A DNA stretch of 64,000 nt. Origin: Candidatus Woesearchaeota archaeon. GTDB lineage: Archaea > Nanobdellota > Nanobdellia > UBA10117 > ARS21. Below the pieces are notes generated by a model that saw nothing but the letters and a program-made list of their open reading frames with translations, had not been told where the DNA came from and made no database searches. The stretch lies in contig JAYPKL010000001.1 in assembly GCA_038128845.1 (NCBI GenBank), positions 113,605 to 177,604 of the forward strand, written 5' to 3'. Of the stretch, positions 3,615-42,252 are shown one piece after another. The position numbers and the translations under genes are program-made. Position 1 is the stretch's first letter; each line of letters begins with the position of its first letter.

Positions 3615-5219
3615 ATGAGCGGTTCTAACCATAAACAAGTATCAGTTGCAGAGTTTTTTGAAAAAAATAGACATTTACTTGGATTTAATAATCCTGCAAA
3701 AGCACTTTTAACTTCAGTAAAAGAAGCAGTAGATAATTCTTTGGATGCATGTGAAAGTTCAAAGATTCTTCCAGATATTTTTGTTAAGATTCAAGATATG
3801 GGAAATGATAGATATAAATTAATTGTCGAAGATAATGGTCCGGGCCTAGATAAAAAAGTATTGGGTAAAGCATTTGGTTCATTGTTATATGGTTCTAAAT
3901 TCAGATCTACTGGAGGAAAACAAGGAAGAGGACAACAAGGTATTGGTATATCTGCAGTTATAATGTATGGTCAACTTACTACGGGTAAACCGGCAGTTAT
4001 TATTTCAAAAACTGCAAAAGAAAGCAAGGCAAGACATTACAAGTTACATATTGATGTTAAAAATAATGAACCAGACATTTTAGAATCTGAAGAAAAAGAT
4101 TGGAAAAAAGATCACGGAACCAGAATTGAAGTTATTATGGATGGAAAAATATTGAAAACAAAACAATCTCCATTTGAATTTATTAAGCAAACAGCAGTTG
4201 TTAATCCTCATGCAAAATTGGAATATGTAGATCAAGAGGGTCAAAAATATAAATTTCCAAGAGTAATTAATGAATTACCAAAAGAAGCTAAAGAATTAAA
4301 ACCACATCCACACGGTACCGAATTTGGTGTTTTCAAAAGAATGTCAAAAGCAACTAACGCAAGATCTATTAAGAGCTTTTTAACTACTGATTTTGACAAA
4401 GTTGGAGCAGGTACTGCCGAATTAATATTAAAAGAGGCAGAAATTGATGAAAGAATTATGCCAAAATTATTGAATGATGATCAATTACATTCAATTCATA
4501 AAGCAATTGCAAATGCAAAAATAATGAATCCTAGTACTGATTGTTTAAGCCCAATAGGTGCAGAAGCATTAAGAAAAAGTTTAGAATCAGAGTACGATTT
4601 AGAATTTACTAAAGCAGTTACAAGACGTCCAACTGTATATAGAGGATTTCCATTTCAAATTGAAGTTGCCATCGGATACGGAGGAGAATTAAATCCCGAA
4701 GGATCTGTAAATTTGAATCGTTTTGCAAATAAAGTTCCATTATTATACGAAGAAGGTGCATGTGCAATTACGAAAGAACTTAAGAAAATAACTTGGAGAA
4801 GTTACGGTTTATCAAATTCTTCGGGCAGTATGCCGAGCGGACCTGCAATTATTGTAGTTCACATGGCTTCAGTTTGGGTACCATTTACTTCCGAAAGTAA
4901 GGCATCGGTTGCAAGTTATCCGGATATAAATAAAGAATTAAGATTAGCAATTCAAGAATGTGCAAGAAGTTTGCAAGTATATGTAAAGAGAAAACAAAAA
5001 TCAGCATTAGAAGAAGAAAAAAGACAAAAGTTCAGAGGTTATTCTGACGAAGTTTCAAAAGCGGTTGCTAAACTTACATTAAAAGATTCATACAAAGCAG
5101 ATACAAAACAAATATTAAATGTTTCAGATAAAATAAGAGATTCATTACTAAAGACTGCAGAATCAATGTATTCTTCAGGAAAGAATTTGGAAGAATCGGA
5201 GGAAGAAGAAAATGAGTAA
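3615..5219 (+). CDS. top6B: DNA topoisomerase VI subunit B
   Basis: GHKL/Bergerat ATPase motifs (VKEAVDNSLDACE, DNGPGL, GxxGxG). 534 aa. Overlaps top6A by 8 nt. Confidence 0.9.
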   Translation: MSGSNHKQVSVAEFFEKNRHLLGFNNPAKALLTSVKEAVDNSLDACESSKILPDIFVKIQDMGNDRYKLIVEDNGPGLDKKVLGKAFGSLLYGSKFRSTGGKQGRGQQGIGISAVIMYGQLTTGKPAVIISKTAKESKARHYKLHIDVKNNEPDILESEEKDWKKDHGTRIEVIMDGKILKTKQSPFEFIKQTAVVNPHAKLEYVDQEGQKYKFPRVINELPKEAKELKPHPHGTEFGVFKRMSKATNARSIKSFLTTDFDKVGAGTAELILKEAEIDERIMPKLLNDDQLHSIHKAIANAKIMNPSTDCLSPIGAEALRKSLESEYDLEFTKAVTRRPTVYRGFPFQIEVAIGYGGELNPEGSVNLNRFANKVPLLYEEGACAITKELKKITWRSYGLSNSSGSMPSGPAIIVVHMASVWVPFTSESKASVASYPDINKELRLAIQECARSLQVYVKRKQKSALEEEKRQKFRGYSDEVSKAVAKLTLKDSYKADTKQILNVSDKIRDSLLKTAESMYSSGKNLEESEEEENE

Positions 5220-8161: not shown

Positions 8162-9626
<1,465 letters not shown>

Positions 9627-9680
9627 TTTATGAGAGCACTTACGGGTGCTCTCATAGAACTATATATTGGTCATCATAAG

Positions 9681-9753
9681 GGCTTGTAGCTCAATCTGGT
9701 AGAGCGCCTGCTTTGCACGCAGGAGGTTAGGTGTTCAAATCACTTCAAGTCCA
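9681..9753 (+). tRNA. tRNA-Ala (anticodon UGC) in the 16S-23S spacer
   Basis: GGGCTTGTAGCTCAATCTGGTAGAGCGCCTGCTTTGCACGCAGGAGGTTAGGTGTTCAAATCACTTCAAGTCCA. 7-bp acceptor stem, anticodon loop CTTTGCACG. Confidence 0.85.
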
Positions 9754-9799
9754 TCTCAATCGAGAATCATTGCAATCACGATACATTATCGTGGTTAAG

Positions 9800-12675
<2,876 letters not shown>

Positions 12676-12963: not shown

Positions 12964-13113
12964 TTATTTTTTTCTTGATTTTTCTATAACTTTAAGTTGT
13001 TTCATTGGAATAAAATATTTCCAAACTTTATGTTTATTGTATCCAATTATTTTTTTAAAAAAATCTTGCCACATAAAACATATTGTTATATATCATATAT
13101 AATTATATCTCTC

Positions 13114-13584
13114 ATGTTAGAGATGCCGAAGTATTCTGTAATAAAAGAATATAATAAATTTGAAATTAGAGAATACGAACCATCTGTCTGGACAGAGGTA
13201 AAAAATAAATCAAACATATCTTCTTTTAGAATACTAGCAGATTATATTTTTGGAAATAATTCAAAAAATATCAAAATGAATATGACTGCACCTGTGAGAA
13301 TTGGAGAAAAATTCAGTTTTTTCATGGAATCAAAATATGGAAAAAATCTTCCCGTTCCAAATAATAAAGAAATAAAAATTAAATCTTATGGAAAAGAAAA
13401 GTATGCAGTGATTACATTTTCAGGTTTAACAAATGATGCTAGAGTTAAAAAATTCACAGAAATATTATATTCGGAATTAAAAAAAGAAAAAATTAAACAC
13501 ACAAAAAATTCAATTCTTGCAAGATATGACGGACCATACAAATTACCAATTTTAAGAAGAAATGAAATTATGGTAAAGTTATAA
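13114..13584 (+). CDS. SOUL/HBP heme-binding-family protein
   Basis: From internal Met (MLEMPKYSVIKEYNKFEIREYEPSVWTEV...ILADYIFGNNSKNIKMNMTAPV) the sequence matches the SOUL family signature. The 5' extension of the tracked ORF is hydrophobic junk. Confidence 0.55.
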   Translation: MLEMPKYSVIKEYNKFEIREYEPSVWTEVKNKSNISSFRILADYIFGNNSKNIKMNMTAPVRIGEKFSFFMESKYGKNLPVPNNKEIKIKSYGKEKYAVITFSGLTNDARVKKFTEILYSELKKEKIKHTKNSILARYDGPYKLPILRRNEIMVKL

Positions 13585-13617: not shown

Positions 13618-13882
13618 TAACGCAGGGAGGCAGACCGTCGGTATTTATGCTGTGGAAAGTCCACCCACTCGCGAAGTCCAGCGTAAGCGAACTTTAATCG
13701 GTTCATCTGGCAACAGAAATAAACTGCTTTGATCGCATAATGATGCTTGTCTGAAGTTGTTCAAAGTTAGGTGAGATATGTTAGATTGGATGAGTGCAAG
13801 ACCTTGAGTCGCTAAGTTAAATGTCTGCATTTACTGTCCGATTACGGAGTAAAACAAAAGGTGGCTTATATCTCTGCGTTAC
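13618..13882 (+). ncRNA. rnpB: RNase P RNA (compact form)
   Basis: GC-rich island in an AT-rich intergenic region. CR-I GGAAAGTCCACCC and CR-V ACAAAAGGTGGCTTA can form P4 with the universally conserved bulged U. Terminal P1 pairing AACGCAGGGAG / TCTCTGCGTT. Confidence 0.7.
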
Positions 13883-13902: not shown

Positions 13903-14640
13903 ATGTGTTATATGAAAAAATTCACATTATTATTTTTATTGCCCTTTTTACTAGTTTCAGTATTTGCAACAAATCACACAATTAACGAAACAATTAACGA
14001 AACAATTAACGAAACAATTAACGAAACAATTAACGAAACAACAGAAGATGACCCAGGAATTACTCCAGATTCATTTTTATGGGGAATCGAACTTGCACTT
14101 GAAAGAATACAACTTGCGTTTACATTTAATGAAGAAAGAAAGGCAGAATTAGCTTTAGAACATGCAACAGAAAGATTATTAGAAGTTCAACAAATGATTA
14201 ATGAAAATAATTTTGATGATGCAGAAAAAGCCCAAATAAGATATAATGATAAAGTATCATCATTAAATTTAGAATTTGAAGGTGCAAGTTCTGAATTTTT
14301 AGATTCAATTTATGAAGAATTTGAATTCAAATCCACCAATATACAAGATAAAATTAGAATTAAAATTGATTCAGAAGATCTTGATGAAGACAACAGAGTA
14401 AGAGCTAAAACAATTATAGAAACTATTGAAGGAGATAAATTAATCAAGATTAAAATTAAAGAAATAGCTGACGAAATTAACATACAAATTAAAGAAAAAT
14501 CATTAAGCGAAGATGATGATCTTCTAGATGATGACGATGACGACAAAAGAAAAGGAAAATCAGAAAAAGACGATGACGATGACAGAAAAGGAAAATCAGA
14601 AAAAGATGACGATGATGATGACGAAGCTTCTGATGACTAA
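13903..14640 (+). CDS. secreted acidic low-complexity protein with (ETIN)x5 repeat and poly-Asp C-terminal repeats
   Basis: Signal peptide MKKFTLLFLLPFLLVSVFA. INETINETINET... . C-terminal DDDDDKRKGKSEKDDDDD x2. Confidence 0.5.
   Translation: MCYMKKFTLLFLLPFLLVSVFATNHTINETINETINETINETINETTEDDPGITPDSFLWGIELALERIQLAFTFNEERKAELALEHATERLLEVQQMINENNFDDAEKAQIRYNDKVSSLNLEFEGASSEFLDSIYEEFEFKSTNIQDKIRIKIDSEDLDEDNRVRAKTIIETIEGDKLIKIKIKEIADEINIQIKEKSLSEDDDLLDDDDDDKRKGKSEKDDDDDRKGKSEKDDDDDDEASDD
13978..14037 (+). repeat. perfect tandem repeat, 12 nt x5 (ACAATTAACGAA), in frame within the CDS
   Basis: Directly visible in sequence. Encodes TINE x5. Confidence 0.9.
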
Positions 14641-15644: not shown

Positions 15645-15770
15645 ATGTCTAGACAACGCATATCGATAACTATCGATAAGAAGCTTTTGAATTGGGTTGA
15701 CAAGCAAGTCAAAGAAAAAAGATTTGCTAGCAGATCTCATGCATTGGAGTATTTATTAGCAAATGACTAA
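15645..15770 (+). CDS. ribbon-helix-helix (CopG/Arc-like) small DNA-binding protein, 41 aa
   Basis: MSRQRISITIDKKLLNWVDKQVKEKRFASRSHALEYLLAND: beta-strand ISITID + helix + SRSHALEYLL helix is the RHH signature. Its stop overlaps the giant-gene ATG (ATGACTAA). Not in the ORF track (<60 aa). Confidence 0.55.
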   Translation: MSRQRISITIDKKLLNWVDKQVKEKRFASRSHALEYLLAND

Positions 15771-18700
15771 GCCAAATTTTTTCCTAGGTAATTCTATTAT
15801 TGTTTTAGCTAGTTTGGTTGTTTTTATTTCTGCATTACTTTTACCATATAATCCTAATTTTGAAGGCTTCACACTAAGTGATCCTCAAGTATTAATTGAG
15901 AAATTTCCATCAAGCGTTTCACAAAGTGAAGTGCATGAGGCAGATAATAAAGTCGGTCTAACCGATTTTATTTCTGCTTTAAATTCAGGTTCTATTATTA
16001 CAGGTATGGCAGGAGGTTTACCAGGTCAATGTGCTTTAGTTAGCGAAGATCCTCAAGAAGTTGAGCAATTTTGTACTGGTTTTGTAGTACCTTTTTCAGT
16101 ATATAATGACGGTACATTCTGTTATCAAGATGCAAGGGATCCTGAAAATGCAGCTGCAAATGAATTTTATTGTAATAATGGAGAACCAAGTGCAATCGTC
16201 GGAGATTATATTGGACCGCCCTACGAACCACCACCTCCTTCTAATAATGCACCAACTTGGACACAAACAATAACTCATCCAACAGTTAATGAAGATTCAG
16301 GATCAACAATTGTTGACTCTGATTTAACTTCTAGCGGAAATGGTCAGTGTACGGATCCGGACGTCGGACAAACATTAATTTTTTCAGTTACATCAGAAAA
16401 TACTGCACAAGTTGATTGCGCAGTATCAGGTAATGCGTTAACAGTTACTCCCGCATCAAATTGGTTTGGTACAGCATCATGTACAATAACTTGTGATGAT
16501 GGAAATGGCGGAACTGCTGATGATACTCTGAGCATTACCGTAAACTCTGTGAATGATGCACCTGTTTTAACCGGAATTCCTGATCAAACACTAAGTCATA
16601 CTGCTTCATTAAATAATCTAATTGATCTTTATTCAAATCATAGCGATGTAGATGGTTCGGATGCTGCAACTACATTCACAATTAGTTCCGAAACAGATAC
16701 TTCGGTTGTAGATTGTTCTATTGATAGTGATAGATATGTTGATTGTACTTATGGAGATATGATCGGATCTTCAGATTATTCAGATATAACGATTACTGCC
16801 ACTGATGCAGGAAGCTTGACTGATACAGATACATTCAGAGTTACATTAACAAATATAGAACCAACAACAACAACTCCAACAATTTCACCAAGTTCTCCTT
16901 CTTCTGACGATGATTTAACAGGTTCAAGTTCATTAAGTGATTCGGACGGAGATTCTGTGAATTCAATTTTTGATTGGAGATTTTCCGGAACTTCATTTGC
17001 ATCATTAAATTTACCATTTGATACAAATCCTTCCAGTTCTACACTTAATGATTATACTAGTTACAATAATGATTTCACAAAAAATGGTGCCACATGGCAA
17101 AATAGCGCAACATGTGGACTAACTGGTTCAGGCGGATGTATGGAATTTGACGGTACAAACGACAGACTAACTAGAGCAGATGATTCAGATTTTGATAGCT
17201 TAACTGCATTATCTGTATGTGCATGGGTTTACCCTCACAGCTGGGGCGGAGCAACTGCTGCAGATTATATTTTTGATAAGAGACATGGTTCAAGTCCTTG
17301 GAATTCCGTGGCACTTTTTTTTCACGGAACAGGAGATAAATTAAGATTGGATTTGGGAGCAATAGACGGTACAAATTATGTTTTAGATTATGATTATCCT
17401 TCGGGAGATTTTCCAACAGGAAGTTGGCAATTTGTGTGTGGTACTTGGGATAGCACAAGTACAAATATGACAATATATTATAACGGTGCTAAAGCGAATT
17501 CAACAGGTACTACCTACGGCGGTACATTATTGGATGCAAACGATAAAGCAGTCATAGGAGTATTAGGAGATGAATTTCAGCACTGGTTTGACGGATATAT
17601 GGATAATATTCAATTTTATAACAAAGCCTTATCTTCACAACAAATTTCATCAATGTACGGTTCAGGAACTCCAAATTATGCAGTTTTAGTTTCAGAAGAA
17701 ACAAATGAGGCGGACTCAATAACTGTTACAATTACACCAAGTGATGCAATTGAAGACGGAACTTCTTCAACATCTTCTGCTTCAGTGGTTGCATCAAACT
17801 CTGCTCCAGTTGCTGCCGGTGCTTCACTTGCCGTTGATGAAGACACAACTCTTTCCGATACATTGACTGCAACAGATGCGGAGGGAGATCCATTAACTTT
17901 TTCCATAGTTTCACAAGCATCAAACGGAGTCGCTACAATTACAAACTCTGCAACTGGAGCTTTCAACTATGTTCCGGGCGCAAATTATACTGGAACAGAT
18001 TCATTTACTTTCAAAGCAAATGATGGAACAGCTGATTCGAATATTGAAACAATAAATATTTTAGTAAACCCTGTGAATGATGAACCAGTTTTAACTTCAA
18101 AATTATTATCAATTACTGGAAGTTCTCCATATTACACAACTGAATCTTTTACAGCATCTGCAACAGCATCTGATGTTGATGGAGACACATTAACATTCAT
18201 GTACGATTATAGATTTGATGGAAATTCAGACAGAGTTCTTCATTTATCTTTTGATACAAATACTTCCGAAAATTCAACCGATTATACTTCTTATTCAAAT
18301 GACGCAATAATAAATACGTCCGGAGCATATGATTCAAATGTTCATCCTGTTTGGACTTCTTCCGGAATCAAAGGAGGAGCATATGATTTTACAAATGTAG
18401 ACGATCATGATGCAGCTCATTCAAGTACAAATACTTTGAGAATTCCTTGGGATGAAAGTACATATGACTTAACTCAAGATCTATCTATTTGTTGGTGGAT
18501 GTATCCAACAAATATTGATCCTACCGGATCTACACAAGATAGACAAAACCCAATTTCAAAACATTATAGAGCAGAATTTCAATTCACGCTAGAGACCGAT
18601 GCAAGATTGAATTATTATCATGGTAATTCAAATCCAAATGGTACCACTTCAATTTATAGTTCTCACAGATTACTAAATGTTGGAGCAGTCACAGAAAATG

Positions 18701-21426
18701 ATTGGAATTTTGTTTGTATGGTCAGAGATGATTCCAACAAATGGGTATCCGGATTTTTAGACGGATCATTAAATAGAAATGAAACATATGATTTAATTGA
18801 TACTAATGACCCTTCCTTAGGTTATAGAGAACCAAATTCAGGAGCGGGAAATACATATTATGAAGATATATTAATTGGAGATGGTTATTCAAATCCGTTT
18901 ATCGGAAAAATTGATGAAGTAATGATTTGGAACAAAAAAATATCTGCAGAATATATTTTGTCAATGTATAATTCCGGAACTCCAGATTATTCAGTTTTAG
19001 TTTCACAAGAAACAAGAAAAGGAAATTATAATGTTAGCGTTACGCCTAGCGACGGAACAATTGACGGATCTTCAGGAATTACAAATACAATTGAAATTGT
19101 TAATTTGGCACCAACTTCCAGCACACCTGTTCTTCTTGCTTCAGATGATCCAGATAATAAAACAACAGCAGATTTAAGCGTAACAAACAATTTAGTAGAA
19201 CAAGATCCAGAAGATACTGAAACAAGAAGTTTCACAGAATGGTTTGTTGATTCCATTTCAACTTTAGAATTCTTTTACACTTTTTTCTTTAACTCAACTA
19301 CTGCCGAAGATTTGTCCAGTAATTCTGCAAATGGTACTTTATCCGATATAAATATGTATTACGGAACAGGCATACTTGATGGTGCAATTAATTTTGAACA
19401 AAATTCACAATATTATGTAGATTTAACTGCAAATAATTTTGATTTAACTAATGGAAAAACCCTTACTTTTTGGTATAAGTTAGCAGATAGTACAACAGTG
19501 AGTACGGGCTGTTATGCACCAAGTAGTTCTCAAGAAAGTTGTTATGGTATTTTTTCCAGCGGATCGAGTGGATCTTGGGACAATTATTTGAATTTACGTG
19601 TAGTTGGAACAAATCAAGCAGATATTCAATATGAATTACACGATGGTTCAAGCTTTGGAACACCAGGTTTTGACACAGACAGCACTTCATGGCACATGAT
19701 TGCACTTTCAATTGAATCAGGAAGTTTAAATTTATACCATGACGGACTTGTAATTGGCTCAGCACCTTTCGAAGAAGGTAAAAGAATAGACTTAAGCTAT
19801 TTAGGTATGGGATATGGAGGAGCAGATGATCCTCCTGCAAATGGTCAATTCTACGGACAATTAGACGAAGTTTCATTATTCACAAGAGCTCTACAGGGAG
19901 AACAAATTTTGGCAATTTATAATTCAGGTACTCCGTCTTATGACGAAATTGTTGCAGAAGAAACATTAAAAGGAGAAGATTGGAGCGTAGAAATAACGCC
20001 TATTGATAGAGAAGATTCAGGATCAACTGTGACCTCCAATACCGTTACTATTGAAAACACTGCACCAACAACTCCTTCAGGTTCTACATTATCGCCTTCT
20101 ACATTAAAAGTTGGAAATACATTAACAGCAACAGGAGCAGGATCAACTGACGCAGACGGAGATAGCTTAACATATTATTATGAATTTAGAAGTAATTCGG
20201 CTTCAGGAACAATACTACAAGCTTATTCAACAACCAATACTTACACAGTAGCTCAAAGTGATTCAGGAACTACAATTTATGTGAATATTAAAGCAAATGA
20301 CGCCACTGATGACTCATCTGCTGAAACTGTTTCAAAGGCAGTTTCAAATACTGCACCAACAATCGCCGGAACAGATATTACAATAAACGGTCAAGAAGAT
20401 ACAGATTTAATTTTTGGAACTGTTAATTTCACAACAAGTGCATCTTACAGTGATGCAGACGGAGATGCATTTGCAGGAATAAGAATTACGAGTGCGCCAA
20501 CAAATGGAGATTTATTTAATGGGGCAACTCAATTAACCGGTACAGGTTTACAATGTAATACGATTGTTTTGGGAGGATGTTCGGCTTATAATTTATTTGT
20601 ATCTTCATCAGATATTGCTTCAGGGAATTTTAAATTTGTACCTGACCCAAATGTTAACGGTAATACTGTTGCTGCATTCGGTTTCAATGTATATGATGGA
20701 ACAGAATATTCTTCCGGAGTTGGAACTTCAATTGTGATTAATTTAGGATCAGTTAATGATGCTCCAGTTGCTGTAGATGATGAATACTCTCTAGACTCAG
20801 GTAATACTTTAACAGTTTCAGCATCAGGCGTACTTACAAATGACTCTGATGTTGACGGAAATTCATTAACAACTGTTTTAGGAGTACCTCCTTCAGGAGC
20901 TTCAAGTTTTACACTTAACTCCGATGGAAGTTTCACATATGTTTCAGATCCAACATACTCTGGAGCCACAGATAGTTTCACGTATAGAGCAAATGACGGT
21001 TCTCTTAATTCGAATGTGGCAAATGTTACGATAAATCTTGCTAAAACAATTTCAATTGCACTTTCAAATTCACTTTCTACTGCTTTGACATTTAGTGCTT
21101 CACAAGCAAATGCCCAATTCAGCGGATCGGGTAATGACGATTATCATGTTAACTTAACTGCAAATGGAACAGCAGCAAATTTATCAATTAAAGCATCAGG
21201 TCCTTTATCTGACGGCGGATCAAACTCAATTGCATTATCAAATTTCAAATATAATTATACTGGATCATCAACTCCAGTAGCATTATCAACTTCAGAAACA
21301 AATACAACTAAATCATTTGCAGGTGTCTTAAAACAAACATTCTTTGAATTTTTTATAGACGTCCCAGCTAGCCAATCTGCAGGAACTTATACAAATACCA
21401 TTACATTTAGAGGTGAAACCTTGTAA
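15763..21426 (+). CDS. giant cell-surface protein (1887 aa): N-terminal signal anchor, three LamG/concanavalin-A-like modules, cadherin-like/VCBS-type repeats
   Basis: N-terminal TM (IIVLASLVVFISALLL). Three ~450-aa paralogous modules each ending in the Laminin_G_3 hallmark (MDNIQFYNKALSSQQISSMYGSGTPNY; IDEVMIWNKKISAEYILSMYNSGTPDY; LDEVSLFTRALQGEQILAIYNSGTPSY). Repeated VNDAPV/VNDEPV and DAPVAVDD...TNDSDVDGNSL motifs (cadherin-like/VCBS adhesin repeats). Thr/Ser/Asp-rich. Confidence 0.8.
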   Translation: MTKPNFFLGNSIIVLASLVVFISALLLPYNPNFEGFTLSDPQVLIEKFPSSVSQSEVHEADNKVGLTDFISALNSGSIITGMAGGLPGQCALVSEDPQEVEQFCTGFVVPFSVYNDGTFCYQDARDPENAAANEFYCNNGEPSAIVGDYIGPPYEPPPPSNNAPTWTQTITHPTVNEDSGSTIVDSDLTSSGNGQCTDPDVGQTLIFSVTSENTAQVDCAVSGNALTVTPASNWFGTASCTITCDDGNGGTADDTLSITVNSVNDAPVLTGIPDQTLSHTASLNNLIDLYSNHSDVDGSDAATTFTISSETDTSVVDCSIDSDRYVDCTYGDMIGSSDYSDITITATDAGSLTDTDTFRVTLTNIEPTTTTPTISPSSPSSDDDLTGSSSLSDSDGDSVNSIFDWRFSGTSFASLNLPFDTNPSSSTLNDYTSYNNDFTKNGATWQNSATCGLTGSGGCMEFDGTNDRLTRADDSDFDSLTALSVCAWVYPHSWGGATAADYIFDKRHGSSPWNSVALFFHGTGDKLRLDLGAIDGTNYVLDYDYPSGDFPTGSWQFVCGTWDSTSTNMTIYYNGAKANSTGTTYGGTLLDANDKAVIGVLGDEFQHWFDGYMDNIQFYNKALSSQQISSMYGSGTPNYAVLVSEETNEADSITVTITPSDAIEDGTSSTSSASVVASNSAPVAAGASLAVDEDTTLSDTLTATDAEGDPLTFSIVSQASNGVATITNSATGAFNYVPGANYTGTDSFTFKANDGTADSNIETINILVNPVNDEPVLTSKLLSITGSSPYYTTESFTASATASDVDGDTLTFMYDYRFDGNSDRVLHLSFDTNTSENSTDYTSYSNDAIINTSGAYDSNVHPVWTSSGIKGGAYDFTNVDDHDAAHSSTNTLRIPWDESTYDLTQDLSICWWMYPTNIDPTGSTQDRQNPISKHYRAEFQFTLETDARLNYYHGNSNPNGTTSIYSSHRLLNVGAVTENDWNFVCMVRDDSNKWVSGFLDGSLNRNETYDLIDTNDPSLGYREPNSGAGNTYYEDILIGDGYSNPFIGKIDEVMIWNKKISAEYILSMYNSGTPDYSVLVSQETRKGNYNVSVTPSDGTIDGSSGITNTIEIVNLAPTSSTPVLLASDDPDNKTTADLSVTNNLVEQDPEDTETRSFTEWFVDSISTLEFFYTFFFNSTTAEDLSSNSANGTLSDINMYYGTGILDGAINFEQNSQYYVDLTANNFDLTNGKTLTFWYKLADSTTVSTGCYAPSSSQESCYGIFSSGSSGSWDNYLNLRVVGTNQADIQYELHDGSSFGTPGFDTDSTSWHMIALSIESGSLNLYHDGLVIGSAPFEEGKRIDLSYLGMGYGGADDPPANGQFYGQLDEVSLFTRALQGEQILAIYNSGTPSYDEIVAEETLKGEDWSVEITPIDREDSGSTVTSNTVTIENTAPTTPSGSTLSPSTLKVGNTLTATGAGSTDADGDSLTYYYEFRSNSASGTILQAYSTTNTYTVAQSDSGTTIYVNIKANDATDDSSAETVSKAVSNTAPTIAGTDITINGQEDTDLIFGTVNFTTSASYSDADGDAFAGIRITSAPTNGDLFNGATQLTGTGLQCNTIVLGGCSAYNLFVSSSDIASGNFKFVPDPNVNGNTVAAFGFNVYDGTEYSSGVGTSIVINLGSVNDAPVAVDDEYSLDSGNTLTVSASGVLTNDSDVDGNSLTTVLGVPPSGASSFTLNSDGSFTYVSDPTYSGATDSFTYRANDGSLNSNVANVTINLAKTISIALSNSLSTALTFSASQANAQFSGSGNDDYHVNLTANGTAANLSIKASGPLSDGGSNSIALSNFKYNYTGSSTPVALSTSETNTTKSFAGVLKQTFFEFFIDVPASQSAGTYTNTITFRGETL

Positions 21427-21575
21427 TGAAATCCGTAATTACAATTTCTATAGACAAAGACTTACTAAAACGAATAGATGAAGGAATTAAAGATTATAAA
21501 TTCGCTAATAGATCGCATGGTTTTGAATACTTAATTTCTAGAGAAATATTGAAAAAGAAGGAGAGTAAAAATTAA
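21426..21575 (+). CDS. ribbon-helix-helix small protein, 49 aa, paralog of the upstream RHH
   Basis: MKSVITISIDKDLLKRIDEGIKDYKFANRSHGFEYLISREILKKKESKN. Same ISI.IDK.LL..(V/I)D......FA.RSH..EYL pattern as the 15645 ORF. Its ATG shares the A of the giant-gene TAA. The next gene starts 2 nt after its stop. Confidence 0.5.
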   Translation: MKSVITISIDKDLLKRIDEGIKDYKFANRSHGFEYLISREILKKKESKN

Positions 21576-21576
21576 T

Positions 21577-22212
21577 ATGAAAAAATTAAGTTTACTATTA
21601 ATTTTATTCTTAATTCCCTCAGGCTTTGCAGTATCTGGAGCAGGATTAAAATATAATTTTGAATATGTTGAACTTTTAGAAAAAGCAGAGCATTGTTTGA
21701 ATTATGGAGTTTACAATCCTTACGATTCAGATTCTTTAATTTCATTATCTGCAGAAGGAGATTTTCAAGACTATGTAATTGAAAGTGAACCAACAAATGT
21801 TCCTGCAAATACAAATGCAAATAATGAATTAAGAAAAGATATTTGTTTTAAAATTCCAAAAATAGTTGAGTCTTGTGAAGAAGGTAAAGTTCTTGAAGGT
21901 CAAATTATCGCTTCAACTTCACCAAGTACTGAAGGAATCGGAACTGCACTTGCTGTTTCTGCACCGCTAGAGATGAAAGTTAATTGTAATGATTCGTCTC
22001 AAGTAAATTTAATTTATTTTGTAATTCCTTTTATAATTATTTCAACACTTGTTGGATTATTCCAATTTAGAAAAAATTCACGAACTAAAAAATATAATTC
22101 TCTTTATTCCGAACTTATGTTTCTTCATAAAAAAATAAGTTCAGGAAACTTTGATCAATCTCATGTTGATAGATTTAACAAATTACGTTCTATTTTGATT
22201 AATTTCAAATAA
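21577..22212 (+). CDS. secreted protein with C-terminal TM anchor and short cytoplasmic tail
   Basis: Signal peptide MKKLSLLLILFLIPSGFAVSGA. C-terminal helix LIYFVIPFIIISTLVGLFQF followed by basic residues. Confidence 0.45.
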   Translation: MKKLSLLLILFLIPSGFAVSGAGLKYNFEYVELLEKAEHCLNYGVYNPYDSDSLISLSAEGDFQDYVIESEPTNVPANTNANNELRKDICFKIPKIVESCEEGKVLEGQIIASTSPSTEGIGTALAVSAPLEMKVNCNDSSQVNLIYFVIPFIIISTLVGLFQFRKNSRTKKYNSLYSELMFLHKKISSGNFDQSHVDRFNKLRSILINFK

Positions 22213-22288
22213 TTTTTTTATGTATTTGTTAAGTATATTAACAATAAATTATATATACTAATTATTTGTTAATATTATTAACAATTGG

Positions 22289-22774
22289 GTGGATAGTTTG
22301 AAGAATAACTTGTCAGATAGACATATTTACGTATTTAGCACTAGAAACCTCTCTGCAACTGAACGTGTAAAATTTCATTATGCTCTCAGGGGAAGAAATA
22401 ATCCCGGTATTCTTGAACAAACAAACTCAAAATATTTATCCAAAACAATTATTGAAACATCTGAAAAAAATACAAAAACTATAGCTGAATTTCTAGAAAA
22501 TTGGAATTGTTCTTATAATCTTCTAAAATTATCCAAAGGTAAATCACATCTTCTTGTGAAGTATTCTACCACCCAATTGAATTCTACACAATTAGTACAA
22601 TTTACTTACGGACTTTATGGAAGAAGCAAACCAGGTTTGATAAAAAAAGATTCTAAAGAGAAACTTTCCAAAGGTTATTTTTTACTAAAAAAAGATAACA
22701 GCAAAGAAATTTTAGAATTTTTGAACCACTGGAATTGTGAATTATTAATTGAGGAGGTGGATTTAAATGAATAA
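22289..22774 (+). CDS. cytoplasmic protein built from two tandem copies of an uncharacterised ~70-aa domain
   Basis: Copy 1 HIYVFSTRNLSATERVKFHYALRGRNNPGIL...EFLENWNCSYNLLKL. Copy 2 HLLVKYSTTQLNSTQLVQFTYGLYGRSKPGLI...EFLNHWNCELLIEEV. No TM. Confidence 0.45.
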   Translation: MDSLKNNLSDRHIYVFSTRNLSATERVKFHYALRGRNNPGILEQTNSKYLSKTIIETSEKNTKTIAEFLENWNCSYNLLKLSKGKSHLLVKYSTTQLNSTQLVQFTYGLYGRSKPGLIKKDSKEKLSKGYFLLKKDNSKEILEFLNHWNCELLIEEVDLNE

Positions 22775-23537
22775 TAACCAACTCAATTACAAAAGAAACG
22801 AATTAATTGGTAAACATAATCGAAGACTTAAGAGAATAACTTTACTAAACCAACAACTTAAAGCAGGTTTAATTACTTACGAAGAATATTCAAGAAGATA
22901 TGATGAGTTAACAAACAATAAACCAATTTCACATCATGAAAATCTTCTGAATAGAAGACTGGATCAAATTAGTAATCTAGGTTATAGAGAAAAGAGTAAG
23001 ATAAAGTTACTTCCATTAATCTTTGGACTAATTATGTTACCGGCATTAATTGGAATTGGAATAACCGGATTTGCAACTACTGGCGATCAAGATGTTACTG
23101 CAACATTAACAATTAGCAATAACATTGCAGGAAGTTTAAGTTATTCGGGAGTAACATTTACAGATACTAATTTACTTGGCGATAATAATGCTACTTTGAA
23201 TAATCTTGGAAGTTCAGCACCAGGATATACAATTGAGCTAGATGACAGTACGACTGTGAATAATCTCAATGTATGTATTAATGGTACAGATTTAACTTCT
23301 GGATCAAATACAATTGATGTAAGCAGGATAGAAGTATCTTCAAGCTTAACTGGAAGTTCAACAATACCGGCAAAGAGTTCAAGTATTGATTTATCCACCT
23401 CAAGACAAGAAATAGAAGGAGACTTGGATGCGGGAGAAACTCTTTACCAAAGATATTGGTTAGATTTAAGCGGAGGTACACAAACTGGAACATATACTGG
23501 TACATCCGAAATATTAATTACAGAAAATGCATGTTAA
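22767..23537 (+). CDS. bitopic membrane protein: cytoplasmic coiled N-domain, one TM, Thr/Ser-rich extracellular domain
   Basis: TM LLPLIFGLIMLPALIGIGITGF then ATTGDQDVTATLTISNN... . Overlaps the upstream gene by 8 nt. Confidence 0.45.
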   Translation: MNNNQLNYKRNELIGKHNRRLKRITLLNQQLKAGLITYEEYSRRYDELTNNKPISHHENLLNRRLDQISNLGYREKSKIKLLPLIFGLIMLPALIGIGITGFATTGDQDVTATLTISNNIAGSLSYSGVTFTDTNLLGDNNATLNNLGSSAPGYTIELDDSTTVNNLNVCINGTDLTSGSNTIDVSRIEVSSSLTGSSTIPAKSSSIDLSTSRQEIEGDLDAGETLYQRYWLDLSGGTQTGTYTGTSEILITENAC

Positions 23538-23598
23538 AGAAAAATTTGATAAAATATTCAATTTTTTATCAATAATCTTTTATATAAAAAATAAATAT

Positions 23599-23808
23599 AT
23601 GATTATGAATAACAAAAATATGTACGCGTATATATTGTTAGGAGCTGTTTTATTAGCAGGTGTTGCCGGATATATGATGGCAGACCAAGCAGATTCTGAC
23701 ACAGTTATTTTGCCAGACACCAATGAAGTGTTAATTACTGTTACAATAGCAGGTAATTCACTTGATGCAGATGTCACTACGGAGGATAATTATGGCTCGA
23801 GCACGTAG
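23599..23808 (+). CDS. small signal-anchored secreted peptide
   Basis: MIMNNKNMYAYILLGAVLLAGVAGYMMADQADSDTVILPDT... . Likely start at internal Met of the tracked 93-aa ORF. Overlaps the next gene. Confidence 0.3.
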   Translation: MIMNNKNMYAYILLGAVLLAGVAGYMMADQADSDTVILPDTNEVLITVTIAGNSLDADVTTEDNYGSST

Positions 23809-24346
23809 AAATGATGATATGATGAAACTTGCAGCAATTTCTGCAGCAGTTTCATTAGTAGTTGTTTTAGTTTTTTTTGGAGGTACATTGACAGGAAATT
23901 CTTCTACTGATGTAACTCTAACTACAACTATTGCTGCCACTACAACATGTACATTTAATGAAACAGCCGTAACTTTCGGAGCTTTAAATCTTGAAACAAA
24001 TTCTCAATCTCCTGATGCAGGTGATATTATTGAAGTTGTCAACGACGGTTCTACAATCGTAAATATGACTGCTGCTTTAAATCAAACTGCAACAAGTTTA
24101 TTGGGTACTACTACTGGAACTTCTGCATTGGATATAGCCGTTACAGCTGAATCAGGTACTGCAAGCAGTTTAACTGCCTTAGGAACATCAGCAACAGATG
24201 CTGTTACTTTGTTATTACCTGACGATGCAACAGATGCAGTAACACTTACGACCACTATTGACGTAGGTGGAGGAGCATCTAATGTAGGTATAGCAAATGA
24301 AGCACTAATTTCATTTGTTTGTACCGCAGATGTTGACGGAAGTTAA
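23792..24346 (+). CDS. secreted Thr-rich protein with N-terminal signal anchor
   Basis: GGAGGA SD-like then MARARRNDDMMKLAAISAAVSLVVVLVFFGGTLTGNSSTDVTLTTTIAATTT... . Low-complexity T/A/S-rich ectodomain. Confidence 0.45.
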   Translation: MARARRNDDMMKLAAISAAVSLVVVLVFFGGTLTGNSSTDVTLTTTIAATTTCTFNETAVTFGALNLETNSQSPDAGDIIEVVNDGSTIVNMTAALNQTATSLLGTTTGTSALDIAVTAESGTASSLTALGTSATDAVTLLLPDDATDAVTLTTTIDVGGGASNVGIANEALISFVCTADVDGS

Positions 24347-24874
24347 TTGGTAAAATTAAAATTTAGGAGTATCTTTTGGATACTTCTTATTTTTTTTTCA
24401 ATAAATCATGTTTTTTCTTATTCTTTACTCGGACCTCATGAAACATTCACAGTAATTCCTGAAAAAAAATATTCTGGAGAAATATGTATTGGCGCATTCG
24501 GCGATCAAGATTTATTTAATAGAACTTTTCTATATTCATTTGAAAGTAATGATACTGTATTTGTTAATTTCACAATGGACAAAGAAGTAACATCAGATAA
24601 ACGAGATAAATTTTGTAATTCTTATTATTTTTTTGGCGGAGAGTATACTTCTTCAGTAAGTAAAAGTCCTGCTGCTGCAATATTGGTTTCCGAAAAAGTA
24701 GATAGCGGTATTGTTATGGGATACAAAAGAATCATATATGCGGATACTTCTTCTGTGACTTATCGACACGCACTTATCAATCTTTCAAAAAATTTTATTT
24801 TTGTTTTTGTATCTATATTTTCAGTTTTTGGATTAATATTATATATTTTAAAAAAGAATAAATTTAATGAATAA
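24347..24874 (+). CDS. secreted protein with C-terminal TM anchor
   Basis: N-terminal hydrophobic FWILLIFFSINHVFS. C-terminal helix FIFVFVSIFSVFGLILYIL + KKNK. Confidence 0.4.
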   Translation: MVKLKFRSIFWILLIFFSINHVFSYSLLGPHETFTVIPEKKYSGEICIGAFGDQDLFNRTFLYSFESNDTVFVNFTMDKEVTSDKRDKFCNSYYFFGGEYTSSVSKSPAAAILVSEKVDSGIVMGYKRIIYADTSSVTYRHALINLSKNFIFVFVSIFSVFGLILYILKKNKFNE

Positions 24875-26204
24875 AAATATATTATTAGTATTTTCTTTAA
24901 CAATTGTTTTTTCAATTTTTTTCACATCATCAATTATAACGGGCTTATCAACTTATCAAATCAATTTATCTACAAATATAAATCCAATTTATTGGGAAGA
25001 AGAGATCCCCAATATTATAATTTTTCAAAATTCAAGTAGTTTTATTGTTGATTCAGATTTAAGTAATTCAGGTAACGGGTTTTGTAATTCATATAGCGAT
25101 CAAGACAATACAACATTTACAATATCGGATGAGTCTTCTTCAAAAGTTGATTGTAATATAGATGATGTTAAGTTATCGATTATTCCAAATAGCTCTTTTG
25201 CAGGTAGTACTGTTTGTGAAGTTACTTGTAATGAATTTAATTTTTCTGAATCAATTAATTTCACAATAAATGTTTTAGAAGATTTAGAACCAGAATCTGA
25301 AGTTGTTGTAGTAAGTTCTGGCGGAGGCGGAGGCGGAGGAATATCCCGAGCTCAATTAGCGAATATTCTTGGTCAAAATAATATTTTTAATATTGCCATA
25401 AATCCAGAGTCAATTAAACTTAAGTTACGTCCAGGGGAGACTATAAGTGAAATAATTAGTATTGAAAATAAATTAGATAAAATTTATGATATAAACATTC
25501 AAGAAAACACCTTAGTTTCTTATGTAAACATTAAAAATGAACATAGTTTAGAACCAAAATCTACAATAAAAATTCCAATTGAAATTGGAGTACCATTAAA
25601 TGAGTATAGATCAATTATTACAGGTACAATTGATTTTGATGAATATACGGATCTTGCAGTTGTTATAGAAGTTATAAATCCTTTATTAAATCCCGATTCA
25701 CAGCAAGAAGTTGAATTATTAGTTACTTTAGGAACAGACTATATATCTCCAACTCTAATATTCACAGGAGAAATTGATAAGAAAAATATACTTCCAGGTA
25801 CATTACTTAAGCCTAGGATAAAACTTACTGAGTTTTATCAATCAGGATATCCCGAAATAAGTCTCACTTATTATTTATTTGATATGAATAATAATGAATT
25901 GCTCTCATTTACTGACTATTATAAGACTTATGATGACAGAACTCTGAGCATTTTGTTACCTGAAGATATTCCTTTAGGTGAATATGCTCTCACTTTTGAA
26001 GCAAAATATGGTAATTTTGTTTCTAGGAATACTCAAACACTCCAAATAGTATCAAGTAAAGGTTTACTAACTGATGAATTAATAATCCTCACTTTGATGG
26101 TGGGTGTTATGGCTTATTCCATATATGCAGTATCAACTAGACGAAAACGGGGCGGAAATAAACGAAATAAACAAAAAACTAATGCTAAATTAATTTATCA
26201 TTAA
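24867..26204 (+). CDS. surface protein sharing an N-terminal domain with the giant protein; Gly7 linker; C-terminal TM + basic tail
   Basis: DSDLSNSGNGFCNSYSDQDNTTFTISDESSSKVDCNIDD...STVCEVTCNEF aligns with the giant protein segment DSDLTSSGNGQCTDPDVGQTLIFSVTSENTAQVDCAVSG...ASCTITCDDGNG. SSGGGGGGG linker. TM LIILTLMVGVMAYSIYAV then RRKRGGNKRNKQ. Confidence 0.55.
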   Translation: MNKNILLVFSLTIVFSIFFTSSIITGLSTYQINLSTNINPIYWEEEIPNIIIFQNSSSFIVDSDLSNSGNGFCNSYSDQDNTTFTISDESSSKVDCNIDDVKLSIIPNSSFAGSTVCEVTCNEFNFSESINFTINVLEDLEPESEVVVVSSGGGGGGGISRAQLANILGQNNIFNIAINPESIKLKLRPGETISEIISIENKLDKIYDINIQENTLVSYVNIKNEHSLEPKSTIKIPIEIGVPLNEYRSIITGTIDFDEYTDLAVVIEVINPLLNPDSQQEVELLVTLGTDYISPTLIFTGEIDKKNILPGTLLKPRIKLTEFYQSGYPEISLTYYLFDMNNNELLSFTDYYKTYDDRTLSILLPEDIPLGEYALTFEAKYGNFVSRNTQTLQIVSSKGLLTDELIILTLMVGVMAYSIYAVSTRRKRGGNKRNKQKTNAKLIYH

Positions 26205-29814: not shown

Positions 29815-30990
29815 TTAAATATTATTGTTTTTCATTTTATTTAAATAAAAATAGTAAATTATTACAAAAATAGAAAATATGCCAAAAATAAAAATAAGAT
29901 TTTTATTATTCTCTTTTAGACTTATATCTTTTTCAGAAATACAAACGCCATCATTACAACTATTTAATCGACATTCGTAATCATAATTACATTCAGATCC
30001 TCCAACCTTCTTCGGATAATATTTAAATCCATCACAATAGAATGAAAGATTGTTTTCAAATTTTTCTTCACCTTTTTCACAAAAGGATGAATCAATTTTT
30101 TGTGGAGCTTCACAATCATTATCGTTCATATAGTTACAATTATAACTACAATATCCGTCATTATCTTTACAAATATCATTGTTTGTAAATTGGCATGTTT
30201 TTGGAATCAAGACGCCATCTCCGAAACAAATATCATCAGTAGATATATTAAGATCATTACAATCAATATCCGATATACATTCATTTAGTATATTACAATC
30301 TGAATCCTTGAATTCAAATAATTTTGAATTTTTTGAGCAACCTTCTGGACAACATTCATCCGAACCATCGCATTCAGTAATTTCATTATACTCACATCGC
30401 CCCGAATTTAGATTATCTCCATTACAAGTATCAATCGTACAACTATTTCCATCATCACAATCATTATCAGAATTACAGAAGTTTTTGCAATCATTATCCG
30501 CTCTATCAGAACATTTATTTGGACAATATCCATCATTATCTATACAAGACGTTATTTCTTCATATTTGCAAATATTTTTATCAAGATTACAGGTATCAAG
30601 AGTACTAATATCGCCATCATCACAATCAGAATTTGTTGTACATTGAAATTTATTTAAAATAATTATGTTAAGACTAACATATCTTTCATCAGGAGTATAA
30701 ACTATATCTTCTATTGTTAAATTAACTTCTTGCAACTTCAAAGTTTCATTTATTCTTAATATTTTATTATCTGAATAATCAACTGATACTAAAATTGCTT
30801 CTTCGAATATATTTTTTACCGATATATTTCTTCCATCTAATAAGACACTATCATTTTCATTTAATAGTTCAACTTCTTCAGTTAAAGAAAAAACAATAGG
30901 AAAAATAAATAAAAGAAATAATATTTTTTTCATATTATTATTTTTAATATTCATTAATAATAGCTCCGGCCGGATTTGAACCGGCGTCAT
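29815..30990 (-). CDS. cysteine-rich repeat surface protein (signal peptide, ~50 Cys in repeated CxxDxDCDDGNxCTxDxC modules, C-terminal TM)
   Basis: Signal MKKILFLLFIFPIVFS. Repeated TNSDCDDGDISTLDTCN / SDNDCDDGNSCTIDTCN / SDIDCNDLNISTDDICF modules. C-terminal helix IFIFGIFSIFVIIYYFYL. Confidence 0.5.
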   Translation of the reverse strand: MTPVQIRPELLLMNIKNNNMKKILFLLFIFPIVFSLTEEVELLNENDSVLLDGRNISVKNIFEEAILVSVDYSDNKILRINETLKLQEVNLTIEDIVYTPDERYVSLNIIILNKFQCTTNSDCDDGDISTLDTCNLDKNICKYEEITSCIDNDGYCPNKCSDRADNDCKNFCNSDNDCDDGNSCTIDTCNGDNLNSGRCEYNEITECDGSDECCPEGCSKNSKLFEFKDSDCNILNECISDIDCNDLNISTDDICFGDGVLIPKTCQFTNNDICKDNDGYCSYNCNYMNDNDCEAPQKIDSSFCEKGEEKFENNLSFYCDGFKYYPKKVGGSECNYDYECRLNSCNDGVCISEKDISLKENNKNLIFIFGIFSIFVIIYYFYLNKMKNNNI

Positions 30991-41947: not shown

Positions 41948-41981
41948 TAATATTTTTAAATTAAAATTTAAGAGAAGATAT

Positions 41982-42252
41982 GGGCTAGACAGGCGGGTTA
42001 GGCGCCGTTGTAACTCCATATACCGGAGTGTCGAAGTTCATTGGGAGGCATTGACGGTATGCTATATCCCCAAACAATAATGTCGAAGCGTTGCCTTCCT
42101 TGGCGGTTAATTTTGAGAACCTGGTCAGGCGGGGAACCGAGCAGCCATAATCATGTTTATTCGTGCTTTGAAGTAGTGGCGTGGAGTTATTATTTGGTAA
42201 GATATTTTATTCAAGAAATGTCCACTTTTGAACGTGCCCACTTATTCTAAGT
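41982..42252 (+). ncRNA. ffs: signal recognition particle RNA (7S RNA)
   Basis: GC-rich island. 5' GGGCTAGACAGGCGGG. Helix-8 motif CTGGTCAGGCGGGGAACCGAGCAGCC (consensus GUCAGG-CC-GAAGG-AGCAGCC). 3' end complementary to the 5' end. Confidence 0.7.

Follow-up and report, generated by a model that had tools for sequence, protein, structure and literature searches.

How DPANN archaea grip their hosts is an open question. Large secreted proteins with laminin G (LamG) and PKD domains have been proposed as host-attachment factors in this group (PMC7443923, PMC5498576), and a description as "large LamG/Ig proteins", naming their LamG and immunoglobulin-like (Ig) parts, is silent on how such a protein is mounted and how its specificity evolves. 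In the archaeal Tat-fimbriae (Tafi), the proposed tip subunit TafC combines a pilin-like domain with a LamG domain, the membrane protein TafF has been proposed as the filament anchor, and strand donation in the Natrinema filament was shown by cryo-electron microscopy (PMC11821415, PMC12337348). Here we analysed a stretch of 64,000 nucleotides from contig JAYPKL010000001.1 of a Candidatus Woesearchaeota archaeon (the window, to which all coordinates refer unless stated otherwise) and in it a giant gene at 15763..21426 on the + strand, together with its operon. Giant LamG/cadherin-like surface proteins of DPANN archaea have been described before at the level of their domains (PMC7443923, PMC5498576), and the product adds a further member to this kind. 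The locus is made distinctive by a constant, pilin-like C-terminal domain (CTD), a second copy of this domain in a membrane protein of the operon and a conserved gene cassette, all of which were overlooked in a preliminary description made from the DNA letters alone.

The open reading frame (ORF) starts with ATG and encodes 1,887 amino acids (aa) free of internal stops. Its domain borders were set by linker motifs of the xNxAP[TV] type, which gave the following layout:

aa 1-30 (15763..15852, +): motif M[TN]KP.F.LGNS and a hydrophobic helix; signal peptide or signal anchor
aa 31-160 (15853..16242, +): N-terminal "head" with four Cys; no Pfam match; the most variable part
aa 161-367 (16243..16863, +): two cadherin-like/Big_9 Ig domains, cad1 (161-267) and cad2 (268-367)
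aa 368-681 (16864..17805, +): module A, a split Ig-like domain with an inserted LamG jelly-roll (LamG at about aa 410-638)
aa 682-775 (17806..18087, +): tandem-95/Big_9 domain
aa 776-1116 (18088..19110, +): module B, split Ig with a longer LamG
aa 1117-1434 (19111..20064, +): module C, split Ig with LamG
aa 1435-1760 (20065..21042, +): uninterrupted PKD-like Ig (1435-1531), cadherin-like domain (1532-1667), second tandem-95 domain (1668-1760)
aa 1761-1887 (21043..21423, +): CTD, the constant C-terminal domain, an unannotated pilin-like beta-sandwich

The content of three LamG and several cadherin-like/Big_9 domains that had been proposed for the protein was borne out by Pfam and NCBIfam scans. 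Over the whole protein Laminin_G_3 (PF13385) scored 133 bits, and Big_9 (PF17963), Cadherin_5 (PF17892) and Cadherin_4 (PF17803) scored 115, 109 and 95 bits, each in three stretches; the NCBIfam tandem-95 repeat (NF012211) reached 129 bits (cut-off 90) in four stretches, the best of them at aa 692-779. The three cadherin-like Pfam families were above cut-off at aa 161-267 (cad1; Cadherin_5 40 bits, Big_9 38 bits), 682-775 (Big_9 62 bits) and 1668-1760 (Big_9 57.6 bits, Cadherin_4 48 bits), and at aa 1532-1667 a weak match to Cadherin_5 was seen. The cad2 domain, which has no Pfam match, was assigned by internal similarity and the xNxAP linker pattern. Among the PKD families tested (PF18911 and PF00801), PKD_4 gave 16.4 bits against a cut-off of 27, at aa 1435-1531 alone. 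No match to VCBS (PF13517) was found at E<=0.1 for the whole giant protein or at E<=1 for its segments, and this part of the earlier labelling was dropped; the string DAPVAVDD...TNDSDVDGNSL, previously quoted as a repeat, was found once, as one of the two clear tandem-95 domains. The scans showed no catalytic domain. On the sequence evidence, the stalk is made of about ten Ig-like (cadherin-like, tandem-95 and PKD-like) domains.

Modules A, B and C matched Laminin_G_3 with 77.5, 42.5 and 49.3 bits, respectively (cut-off 27.6), and a weak Pentaxin match was also seen in module A. The motif (D)EV..(I/F)..(A)LS...I...YNSGTP.Y that had been used to recognise the modules is present in three copies, at about aa 615-640, 1050-1077 and 1367-1394. 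The number of three repeated modules was thus correct, whereas their size of ~450 aa was not: they are 314, 341 and 318 aa long, with spacings of 408 and 341 aa, and the linkers after the LamG domains, thought to be near-identical, are only related, the quoted string occurring once. When the ~42 aa before and the ~43 aa after LamG A were joined, they aligned from one end to the other with the domain at aa 1435-1531, which is uninterrupted (z=7.0; the score was reached in 0 of 500 shuffles). The joined halves of module B aligned partially with the same domain (z=4.6); those of module C were not significant alone, and module C is homologous to A and B. As judged from these alignments, LamG A is an insertion inside an Ig-like domain, and the LamG domains would be mounted on the side of an Ig-like stalk. 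The best relatives of module A among PDB sequences were pentraxin-type and pappalysin LamG domains and a sialidase lectin domain, all of them weak, which is consistent with a jelly-roll that binds carbohydrates or glycoproteins. The internal repeats of the protein are significant (E down to 1e-20) and 27-45% identical, and at the DNA level a single 75-nt stretch with 83% identity was seen; the repeats are real but old. Because the DNA-level repeats are negligible and the protein repeats only 27-45% identical, a collapse of repeats during assembly is of no concern.

No Pfam or NCBIfam match was obtained for the CTD, nor any Pfam match for 10 stand-alone CTD proteins. In an exhaustive search of 1.84 billion representatives with a profile built from nine CTDs, a family of 454 clusters was returned at E<=1e-3, of which 195 also pass E<=1e-10. 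The CTD is nearly always at the very end of its proteins, with a median of 6 residues between it and the C-terminus, and more than 30 residues follow it in only 3 of the 156 proteins examined. CTD-bearing proteins span 122 to 3,462 aa, and about a quarter of them are 150-250 aa long and consist of a signal peptide or transmembrane (TM) segment and the CTD only. All members with a source name are archaeal (Woesearchaeota, Aenigmatarchaeota, Methanomethylicota), and all are called "hypothetical" or named for another domain. As a separate observation, at least 17 other giant CTD proteins (881-3,140 aa, most over 1,500 aa; P0134, P0141, P0167, P0174, P0180, P0182, P0183, P0187, P0188, P0198, P0202, P0205, P0231, P0236, P0240, P0249 and P0258) open with a conserved, apparently cytoplasmic motif, [VA]YKRY.x.R.GK.FGPYYY.SYRD, and in all seven that were checked a single TM helix comes after the motif.

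We modelled the CTD with AlphaFold2. A model from a 9-sequence alignment was poor (predicted local distance difference test, pLDDT, 71) and was replaced by one from 54 sequences, which is a beta-sandwich with a pLDDT of 93.4 and a predicted TM-score of 0.83, all five models having a pLDDT of at least 90. In a Foldseek search against the PDB the best match was CsuA/B (E 3.8e-4, TM-score 0.60, probability 1.0). The top 50 were mostly subunits that assemble by strand donation, namely CsuA/B, CS17, CfaB, the pilin domain of PapG, FimF/G/A, Caf1, SafA, the archaeal bundling pilin AbpA, TasA and a TasA-like protein; the main match outside the pilins was the N-terminal beta-sandwich of GH123, and no viral fold was matched at E<=1e-3. 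The CTD as modelled has a pilin-type Ig-like beta-sandwich fold. Its profile found no meaningful match among the sequences of solved structures in the PDB, so the resemblance to pilins is at the level of the fold only.

The giant gene is the second in a tightly packed, co-directional block of 10 genes at 15645-26204 (+), which is referred to here as the operon. Its other members are listed below; L numbers denote related loci, and RHH stands for ribbon-helix-helix.

15645..15770, +: 41-aa RHH (CopG-like) ORF, translation MSRQRISITIDKKLLNWVDKQVKEKRFASRSHALEYLLAND; its end overlaps the giant-gene start by 8 nt
21426..21575, +: 49-aa RHH ORF with weak, sub-threshold matches to RHH_1 and the NikR N-terminal region; overlaps the giant-gene stop by 1 nt
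21577..22212, +: g211, with a signal peptide, an ectodomain of ~110 aa with 4 invariant Cys, a C-terminal TM and a basic tail
22289..22774, +: g161, a cytoplasmic two-repeat protein without TM or family match; homologs only in L003, L013 and L014
22767..23537, +: g256, with a cytoplasmic N-terminus of ~80 aa, a TM at aa 81-99 and then the second CTD copy
23605..24874, +: g67, g184 and g175, three small membrane or secreted proteins by TM prediction; homologs only in L003, L013 and L014
24867..26204, +: g445, with a signal peptide, a cadherin-like domain, a poly-Gly linker, two Ig-like domains, a C-terminal TM and a basic tail

When a broad CTD profile was run against all window ORFs of at least 50 codons, it matched two of them, the giant protein (E 1.4e-28) and g256 (E 2.6e-18), and hhalign also recognised the CTD of g256 (probability 91%, E 9e-7). 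The protein g184 was considered as a third CTD protein and rejected (hhalign probability 0.3%). In g211, TM-like segments are at aa 6-24 and 143-161; family and profile searches gave no Pfam or PDB relative of it, and its alignment, like that of the CTD, was too divergent for pattern scans. Homologs of g211 adjoin CTD genes in L003, L013, L014, L016, L017 and L005. We found that a core triad, composed of a large variable protein ending in a CTD, then a small CTD protein (188-280 aa) and then a g211 homolog, occurs in four divergent archaeal lineages, which are the clade of the window itself (L003, L013, L014) and three others:

L016, another Woesearchaeota genome: triad of 527, 188 and 195 aa
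L017, an unassigned contig: triad of 3,140 (Peptidase_S8 and LamG), 203 and 228 aa, then a 642-aa g445-like protein
L005, Methanomethylicota: triad of 297, 189 and 219 aa

The whole operon block is kept within the clade (L001-L004, L013-L015). The layout of g445 also appears in the 642-aa protein that comes after the cassette on the unrelated contig of L017 (20907-22832 of that locus). The first domain of g445 is paralogous to cad1 of the giant protein (31% identity with giant aa 162-265, E 7e-14), and in 2 of 6 homologs a sub-threshold match to WxLIP_PGBD was obtained (E 0.025). The two RHH ORFs that bracket the giant gene are paralogs, 50% identical; the 41-aa ORF is called as a gene of 41-44 aa in L002, L003 and L014, and related loci keep both as genes of 41-50 aa. 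The pair may act in local regulation or be translationally coupled partners. Apart from RHH, which remained sub-threshold, Pfam and NCBIfam gave nothing on the operon proteins beyond the giant one. A literature search for DPANN or Woesearchaeota with donor-strand or bundling pili found nothing, although this does not prove novelty. The CTD family, its fold similarity to strand-donation pilins and the CTD/CTD/g211 cassette were not found annotated or described in the libraries and papers that we searched.

Eight orthologs of the giant protein (P0001-P0003, P0007, P0022, P0026, P0037 and P0038) were compared. Together with the giant protein they range from 1,136 to 1,887 aa, contain one to three LamG modules and differ in their sets of Ig domains. 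P0001 (1,881 aa, 90% identity, full coverage) is intact on two contigs from two JGI samples, and P0002 (1,387 aa) is present on two ENA assemblies. An interruption of the ORF, which would have pointed to an assembly artefact, was therefore seen neither here nor in these four other assemblies. A near-invariant start, M[TN]KP.F.LGNS.I[IV].ASL..FIS, is present in seven of the eight orthologs, P0007 having been called with a truncated N-terminus, and the last ~125-145 aa are common to all eight. The 130-400 aa that follow the conserved start are unrelated between two ortholog groups, and in one group an unrelated stretch of ~400 aa fills the N-terminal region. A search of genome contigs for related loci with the giant protein as query gave no relative.

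The closest comparison is with the strain of locus L001, which carries P0001 and in which the neighbouring genes are 95-100% identical to those of the window (exonuclease III gene xth, 99.6%; g211, 100%; g256, 98.8%). Here aa 1-30, including the TM segment, and the CTD of the giant protein are 100% identical, whereas the head (aa 31-160) is 60% identical with indels, and the DNA around nt 16050 is 54% identical. The gene as a whole is a mosaic, in which stretches of 94-99% DNA identity are broken by short patches of 54-83%. It was found that 119 of the 186 differing alignment columns (64%) are in seven patches covering 13.5% of the alignment: head aa 83-157, a strand of cad1, the entry of module A, the loop before the Trp-strand in each of the three LamG domains, and a second loop of LamG A. 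The LamG patch loops directly precede a conserved Trp-strand (W-x-F-V-C / W-H-M-I-A), and the hypervariable loops are at aa 545-554 and 577-592 in LamG A, aa 966-980 in LamG B and aa 1278-1309 in LamG C. The equivalent loop in each LamG is thus involved, as is also visible in the low-identity DNA patches relative to L001:

16009-16233: patch in the head
17395-17538: patch in the LamG A loops
18658-18702: patch in the LamG B loop
19594-19689: patch in the LamG C loop

Hypervariation driven by a diversity-generating retroelement, for which we looked for a template repeat about 80-90% identical to the variable region and a nearby reverse transcriptase, was rejected: a blastn comparison of the gene with the window (word size 9) gave only two short intragenic repeats and no template repeat, and no reverse transcriptase was matched among the operon proteins and 10 other window ORFs scanned. 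The patches may come from recombination with divergent alleles or from something targeted. L003 is more distant: identity is 88-94% for housekeeping neighbours, 56% for the giant protein, of which only the first 810 aa could be aligned, and 33-72% for the remaining extracytoplasmic proteins of the operon. The pattern of patches suggests diversifying selection or recombination acting on exposed binding surfaces, and hypervariability of the head and of one loop per LamG fits an exposed ligand-binding protein.

The reading that we favour, and to which we would give about an even chance, is that the giant protein is an exported, surface-exposed, modular adhesin of lectin type, belonging to a marine Woesearchaeota archaeon and docked by means of the pilin-like CTD. 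Probably it forms the sticky, fast-evolving component of a surface structure of archaea that is undescribed in the sources searched. The variable head and the LamG loops would bind glycans or glycoproteins of another cell, most plausibly of a host, and would be under diversifying selection, and the invariant ends would interact with conserved machinery of the cell itself, the CTD being the one by which the adhesin is plugged in. According to this proposal, the protein would first be exported through Sec, and its CTD would then dock non-covalently onto g256 by beta-strand complementation. The g256 protein could be a membrane-anchored base or, if cleaved after its TM ("...GITGFA"), could form a short polymer of pilin-like subunits. 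The resulting topology would be that of the two-domain tip adhesins of the FimH/PapG type, with the binding part N-terminal and the pilin domain C-terminal; g211 and g445 could serve as membrane-bound accessories for assembly or anchoring, and the two RHH proteins as local regulators. TafC offers an archaeal precedent for a LamG tip adhesin on a strand-donation fimbria (PMC11821415, PMC12337348). If the rest of the proposal is accepted, the chance that the CTD is a proximal dock which pairs with the CTD of g256 by beta-strand complementation seems to us even at best, and perhaps a little lower.

Several points weigh against this proposal. Host attachment is a putative role, and LamG domains are also found in polysaccharide binding unrelated to symbiosis. 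Docking of one CTD onto another with exchange of strands is suggested only by fold resemblance (TM-score 0.5-0.6, best E 3.8e-4), and the sandwich of the AlphaFold2 CTD monomer is already complete by itself. A signal-peptidase site is not obvious in the N-terminal segment, whose conservation is unusual. In many other giant CTD proteins a TM comes with a conserved cytoplasmic domain at the N-terminus; these relatives are anchored there, which makes it unnecessary to assign their CTD a purely anchoring role. Pfam and NCBIfam scans showed no dedicated signal peptidase of the TafD/SipW type, chaperone, usher or TapA in the operon, g211 and g445 being unannotated candidates.

Two other explanations start from the N-terminus. 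The signal anchor of the preliminary description is supported by a hydrophobic segment at aa 11-29 (Kyte-Doolittle 2.43), the sole such segment of the giant protein, which could be either a signal peptide or a signal anchor. If it stays uncleaved in the membrane, the protein would be an N-terminally anchored fibril with its Ig/LamG stalk pointing outward and the CTD as the distal tip, where it could act as a cap, as a ligand-binding module, or in pairing with CTDs of other proteins or cells. Such a fibril is supported by the lack of a clear AxA-type cleavage site behind the helix and by the complete (100%) conservation of aa 1-30 in P0001; it is also in line with the at least 17 giant CTD proteins that start with the cytoplasmic YKRY..GK.FGPYYY.SYRD motif, in the seven inspected of which a TM follows and the CTD is far from the anchor, and with the GH123 N-terminal beta-sandwich among the fold matches of the CTD. 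The distribution of variability disfavours it, because with a membrane-buried N-terminus and the CTD as an exposed tip the reverse would be expected, whereas the most variable segment (aa 31-160, 60%) comes directly after the helix and the CTD is invariant. Moreover, with ~10 residues between it and the TM, the CTD of g256 sits at the membrane, and those small CTD proteins that carry a classical, cleavable signal peptide could not remain on the cell without a partner. We consider an N-anchored fibril, the main rival of the docked adhesin, rather unlikely.

Alternatively, the segment could be a class III signal peptide (K-P-x5-G|N-S) cut after Gly9, and the giant protein a minor pilin whose helix is inserted into a type IV pilus. 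Gly or Ser is found immediately before the helix in all orthologs and in the wider marine relatives, and the n-region shows far stronger conservation than is usual for Sec signals. Archaeal class III signals usually carry Lys or Arg at position -2, however, and the residue here is the hydrophobic Leu. Models of archaeal pilin and archaellin N-termini gave no match at E<=0.1, and no PilB/FlaI, PilC/FlaJ or PibD was matched in the operon genes and the 10 other window ORFs scanned. LamG proteins have been linked to type IV pilus loci in ARMAN Mia14 (PMC5498576), but a type IV pilin would leave the CTD and the conserved cassette without a role, and this explanation appears very improbable to us.

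The architecture proposed above, a docked adhesin with LamG binding domains, may also be correct with another target: the protein could serve self-aggregation or the formation of biofilms, hold the cell to particles, or capture polysaccharide substrates, with the LamG domains in the role of carbohydrate-binding modules. Binding of sugars is a generic property of LamG/ConA-like domains (PMC11821415, PMC7443923), and the archaeal strand-donation filaments that have been studied, the archaeal bundling pili and Tafi, serve bundling and biofilm formation (PMC12337348). The Peptidase_S8 domain of the L017 relative and the presence of the cassette in Methanomethylicota, which are not known episymbionts, point in the same direction. 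On the other hand, patchy hypervariability between near-identical strains and replacement of the whole head between orthologs are less typical of a protein that binds a constant polymer than of one that recognises a co-evolving biological partner or evades viruses, and the giant protein has no catalytic domain. It seems to us improbable that the target is of this other kind.

A broader proposal extends the docked-adhesin reading to the family. The CTD family and the g211-like protein could form a previously undescribed, Sec-dependent archaeal system for surface appendages or anchoring, which would be common in DPANN (Woesearchaeota, Aenigmatarchaeota) and found also in Methanomethylicota. In it, small CTD subunits and a membrane base would be assembled by beta-strand complementation, and interchangeable, hypervariable giant adhesins, the present LamG protein among them, all with this pilin-like domain at their end, would be the tip subunits by which episymbionts recognise hosts. 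We regard this extension as possible but doubtful. The locus offers three handles on the question of how DPANN archaea hold on to their hosts: a constant, unannotated, pilin-like CTD present in hundreds of archaeal protein clusters; a small conserved set of partner genes suited to co-expression and modelling; and a map of the loops and the head that differ between near-identical strains, which are candidate determinants of specificity.

We also looked at the setting of the gene in the window, which has a GC content of ~28%. An archaeal rRNA operon (16S-tRNA(Ala)-23S) occupies 8162-12665, and the RNase P RNA at 13619-13880 is archaeal as well. Top6B (topoisomerase VI subunit B, 3615-5216) shares 71-74% identity with proteins from metagenome-assembled genomes of Candidatus Woesearchaeota, several of them marine. 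Because of this identity and the archaeal RNA genes, the assignment of the DNA to a DPANN archaeon, already made in the preliminary description, holds. The gene order is kept in several related genomes: Na+/H+ antiporter, rRNA operon, exonuclease III (xth), the giant-gene operon, a winged helix-turn-helix protein and XerA.

Could the giant gene be something other than a functional native gene? It might be a pseudogene, an artefact of repeats in the assembly, or cargo brought in by a virus or an integrated element. Its overall GC is above that of the flanks, and a tyrosine recombinase gene is located 6 kb downstream. The GC excess is at codon position 2, which is raised because of the Ser/Thr/Gly/Asp-rich composition of the protein, and the GC at third codon positions (0.168) is like that of the topoisomerase VI and exonuclease III genes (0.15-0.19). 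The recombinase scores as housekeeping XerA (243 bits, cut-off 220), and the locus is syntenic from the rRNA operon to XerA. Cargo of a mobile element or virus was rejected on these grounds and on the absence of a viral fold match at E<=1e-3, and an assembly artefact with collapsed repeats on the negligible DNA repeats and the intact orthologs on independent contigs. We give this explanation hardly any credence.

Several other features of the window were noticed. Between the rRNA operon and exonuclease III, the RNase P RNA has an ORF on either side, one of 195 aa (12997-13584, +) and one of 245 aa (13903-14640, +), neither with an NCBIfam match; in L001 and L002 a gene of 280-286 aa is present at the matching place upstream of exonuclease III. 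An archaeal signal recognition particle (SRP) RNA of 266 nt is located at 41978-42243 (+), with 91.9 bits just below the Rfam gathering score of 96.5. In the gathering mode of Rfam, only its S domain was given (42090-42186), mislabelled as "Bacteria_small_SRP", and this match to a bacterial small SRP RNA was rejected. Outside the operon, a 391-aa protein (29815-30990, -) has an N-terminal hydrophobic segment, many Cys-rich "CxDxDxxC"-like repeats and a C-terminal TM; it has no NCBIfam match and is another candidate surface protein.

With respect to known systems, bacterial giant adhesins with tandem-95 and cadherin-like domains (e.g. retention-module RTX proteins) have a comparable Big_9/Cadherin_4/Cadherin_5 stalk and gave the best database scores after the orthologs. 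Only the stalk domains are in common, however, covering 3-18% of the query; these proteins are without the LamG-in-Ig modules, the N-terminal motif and the CTD, and they are anchored differently, by the retention module of type I secretion, by type IX secretion and by other means. The organisation of the locus is reminiscent of the WxL/Csc loci of Firmicutes, which reportedly encode large and small secreted proteins with a common C-terminal domain for non-covalent attachment to the surface, and are also said to encode a protein with two Ig-like domains and a C-terminal TM, comparable with g445, and small anchored proteins. WxL (PF13731) was not matched in Pfam by the giant CTD or the stand-alone CTD proteins, the WxLIP_PGBD match of g445 is below cut-off and archaea are without peptidoglycan, so that this analogy hints at a relationship and is taken as a lead only.

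TafC of Haloarcula and Natrinema is similar in that it is archaeal, unites a pilin-like beta-sandwich with LamG and is encoded beside small pilin-like subunits and membrane proteins. The order of the domains is reversed, the pilin domain of TafC being N-terminal and its LamG C-terminal, and the TafC model NF052521 gave 44.8 bits against a cut-off of 410, aligning aa 425-634 of the giant protein, i.e. the LamG part only, with model positions 159-362. The marks of Tafi were taken from PMC11821415 (Tat signal, TafD, TafG and subunits of the DUF1102 type). The N-terminus of the giant protein has no twin-arginine motif, neither TafD (S26 signal peptidase) nor TafG/DUF5305 was found by Pfam and NCBIfam in the operon, and DUF1102 had no match on the operon proteins or the 10 stand-alone CTD proteins. 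By sequence, the giant protein is placed outside the TafC, DUF1102/Tafi, TasA and WxL families.

Chaperone-usher pili provide the best fold matches of the CTD (CsuA/B, CS17, CfaB, the PapG pilin domain), their tip adhesins FimH and PapG likewise have the binding part N-terminal and the pilin-like beta-sandwich C-terminal, and stand-alone small CTD subunits are encoded next door here. There is no sequence similarity to them, the operon has no chaperone or usher, the organism is an archaeon and there is no outer membrane, and the adhesin part is ~1,700 aa long as compared with one lectin domain. Finally, the LamG/PKD proteins of Nanohaloarchaeota and ARMAN Mia14 are similar in that they are large, strain-specific secreted proteins with ConA-like/LamG and Ig-like domains in DPANN archaea with small genomes, for which fast evolution is expected (PMC7443923, PMC5498576). 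We compared them by their description, which consists of predictions at the domain level and includes no conserved pilin-like CTD, partner or cassette. If the docking model is false, the giant gene encodes an ordinary DPANN LamG/cadherin-like surface protein of this kind; if it is true, the locus would add a further class to the archaeal strand-donation filaments and would explain how one conserved base displays rapidly exchanged adhesin heads.

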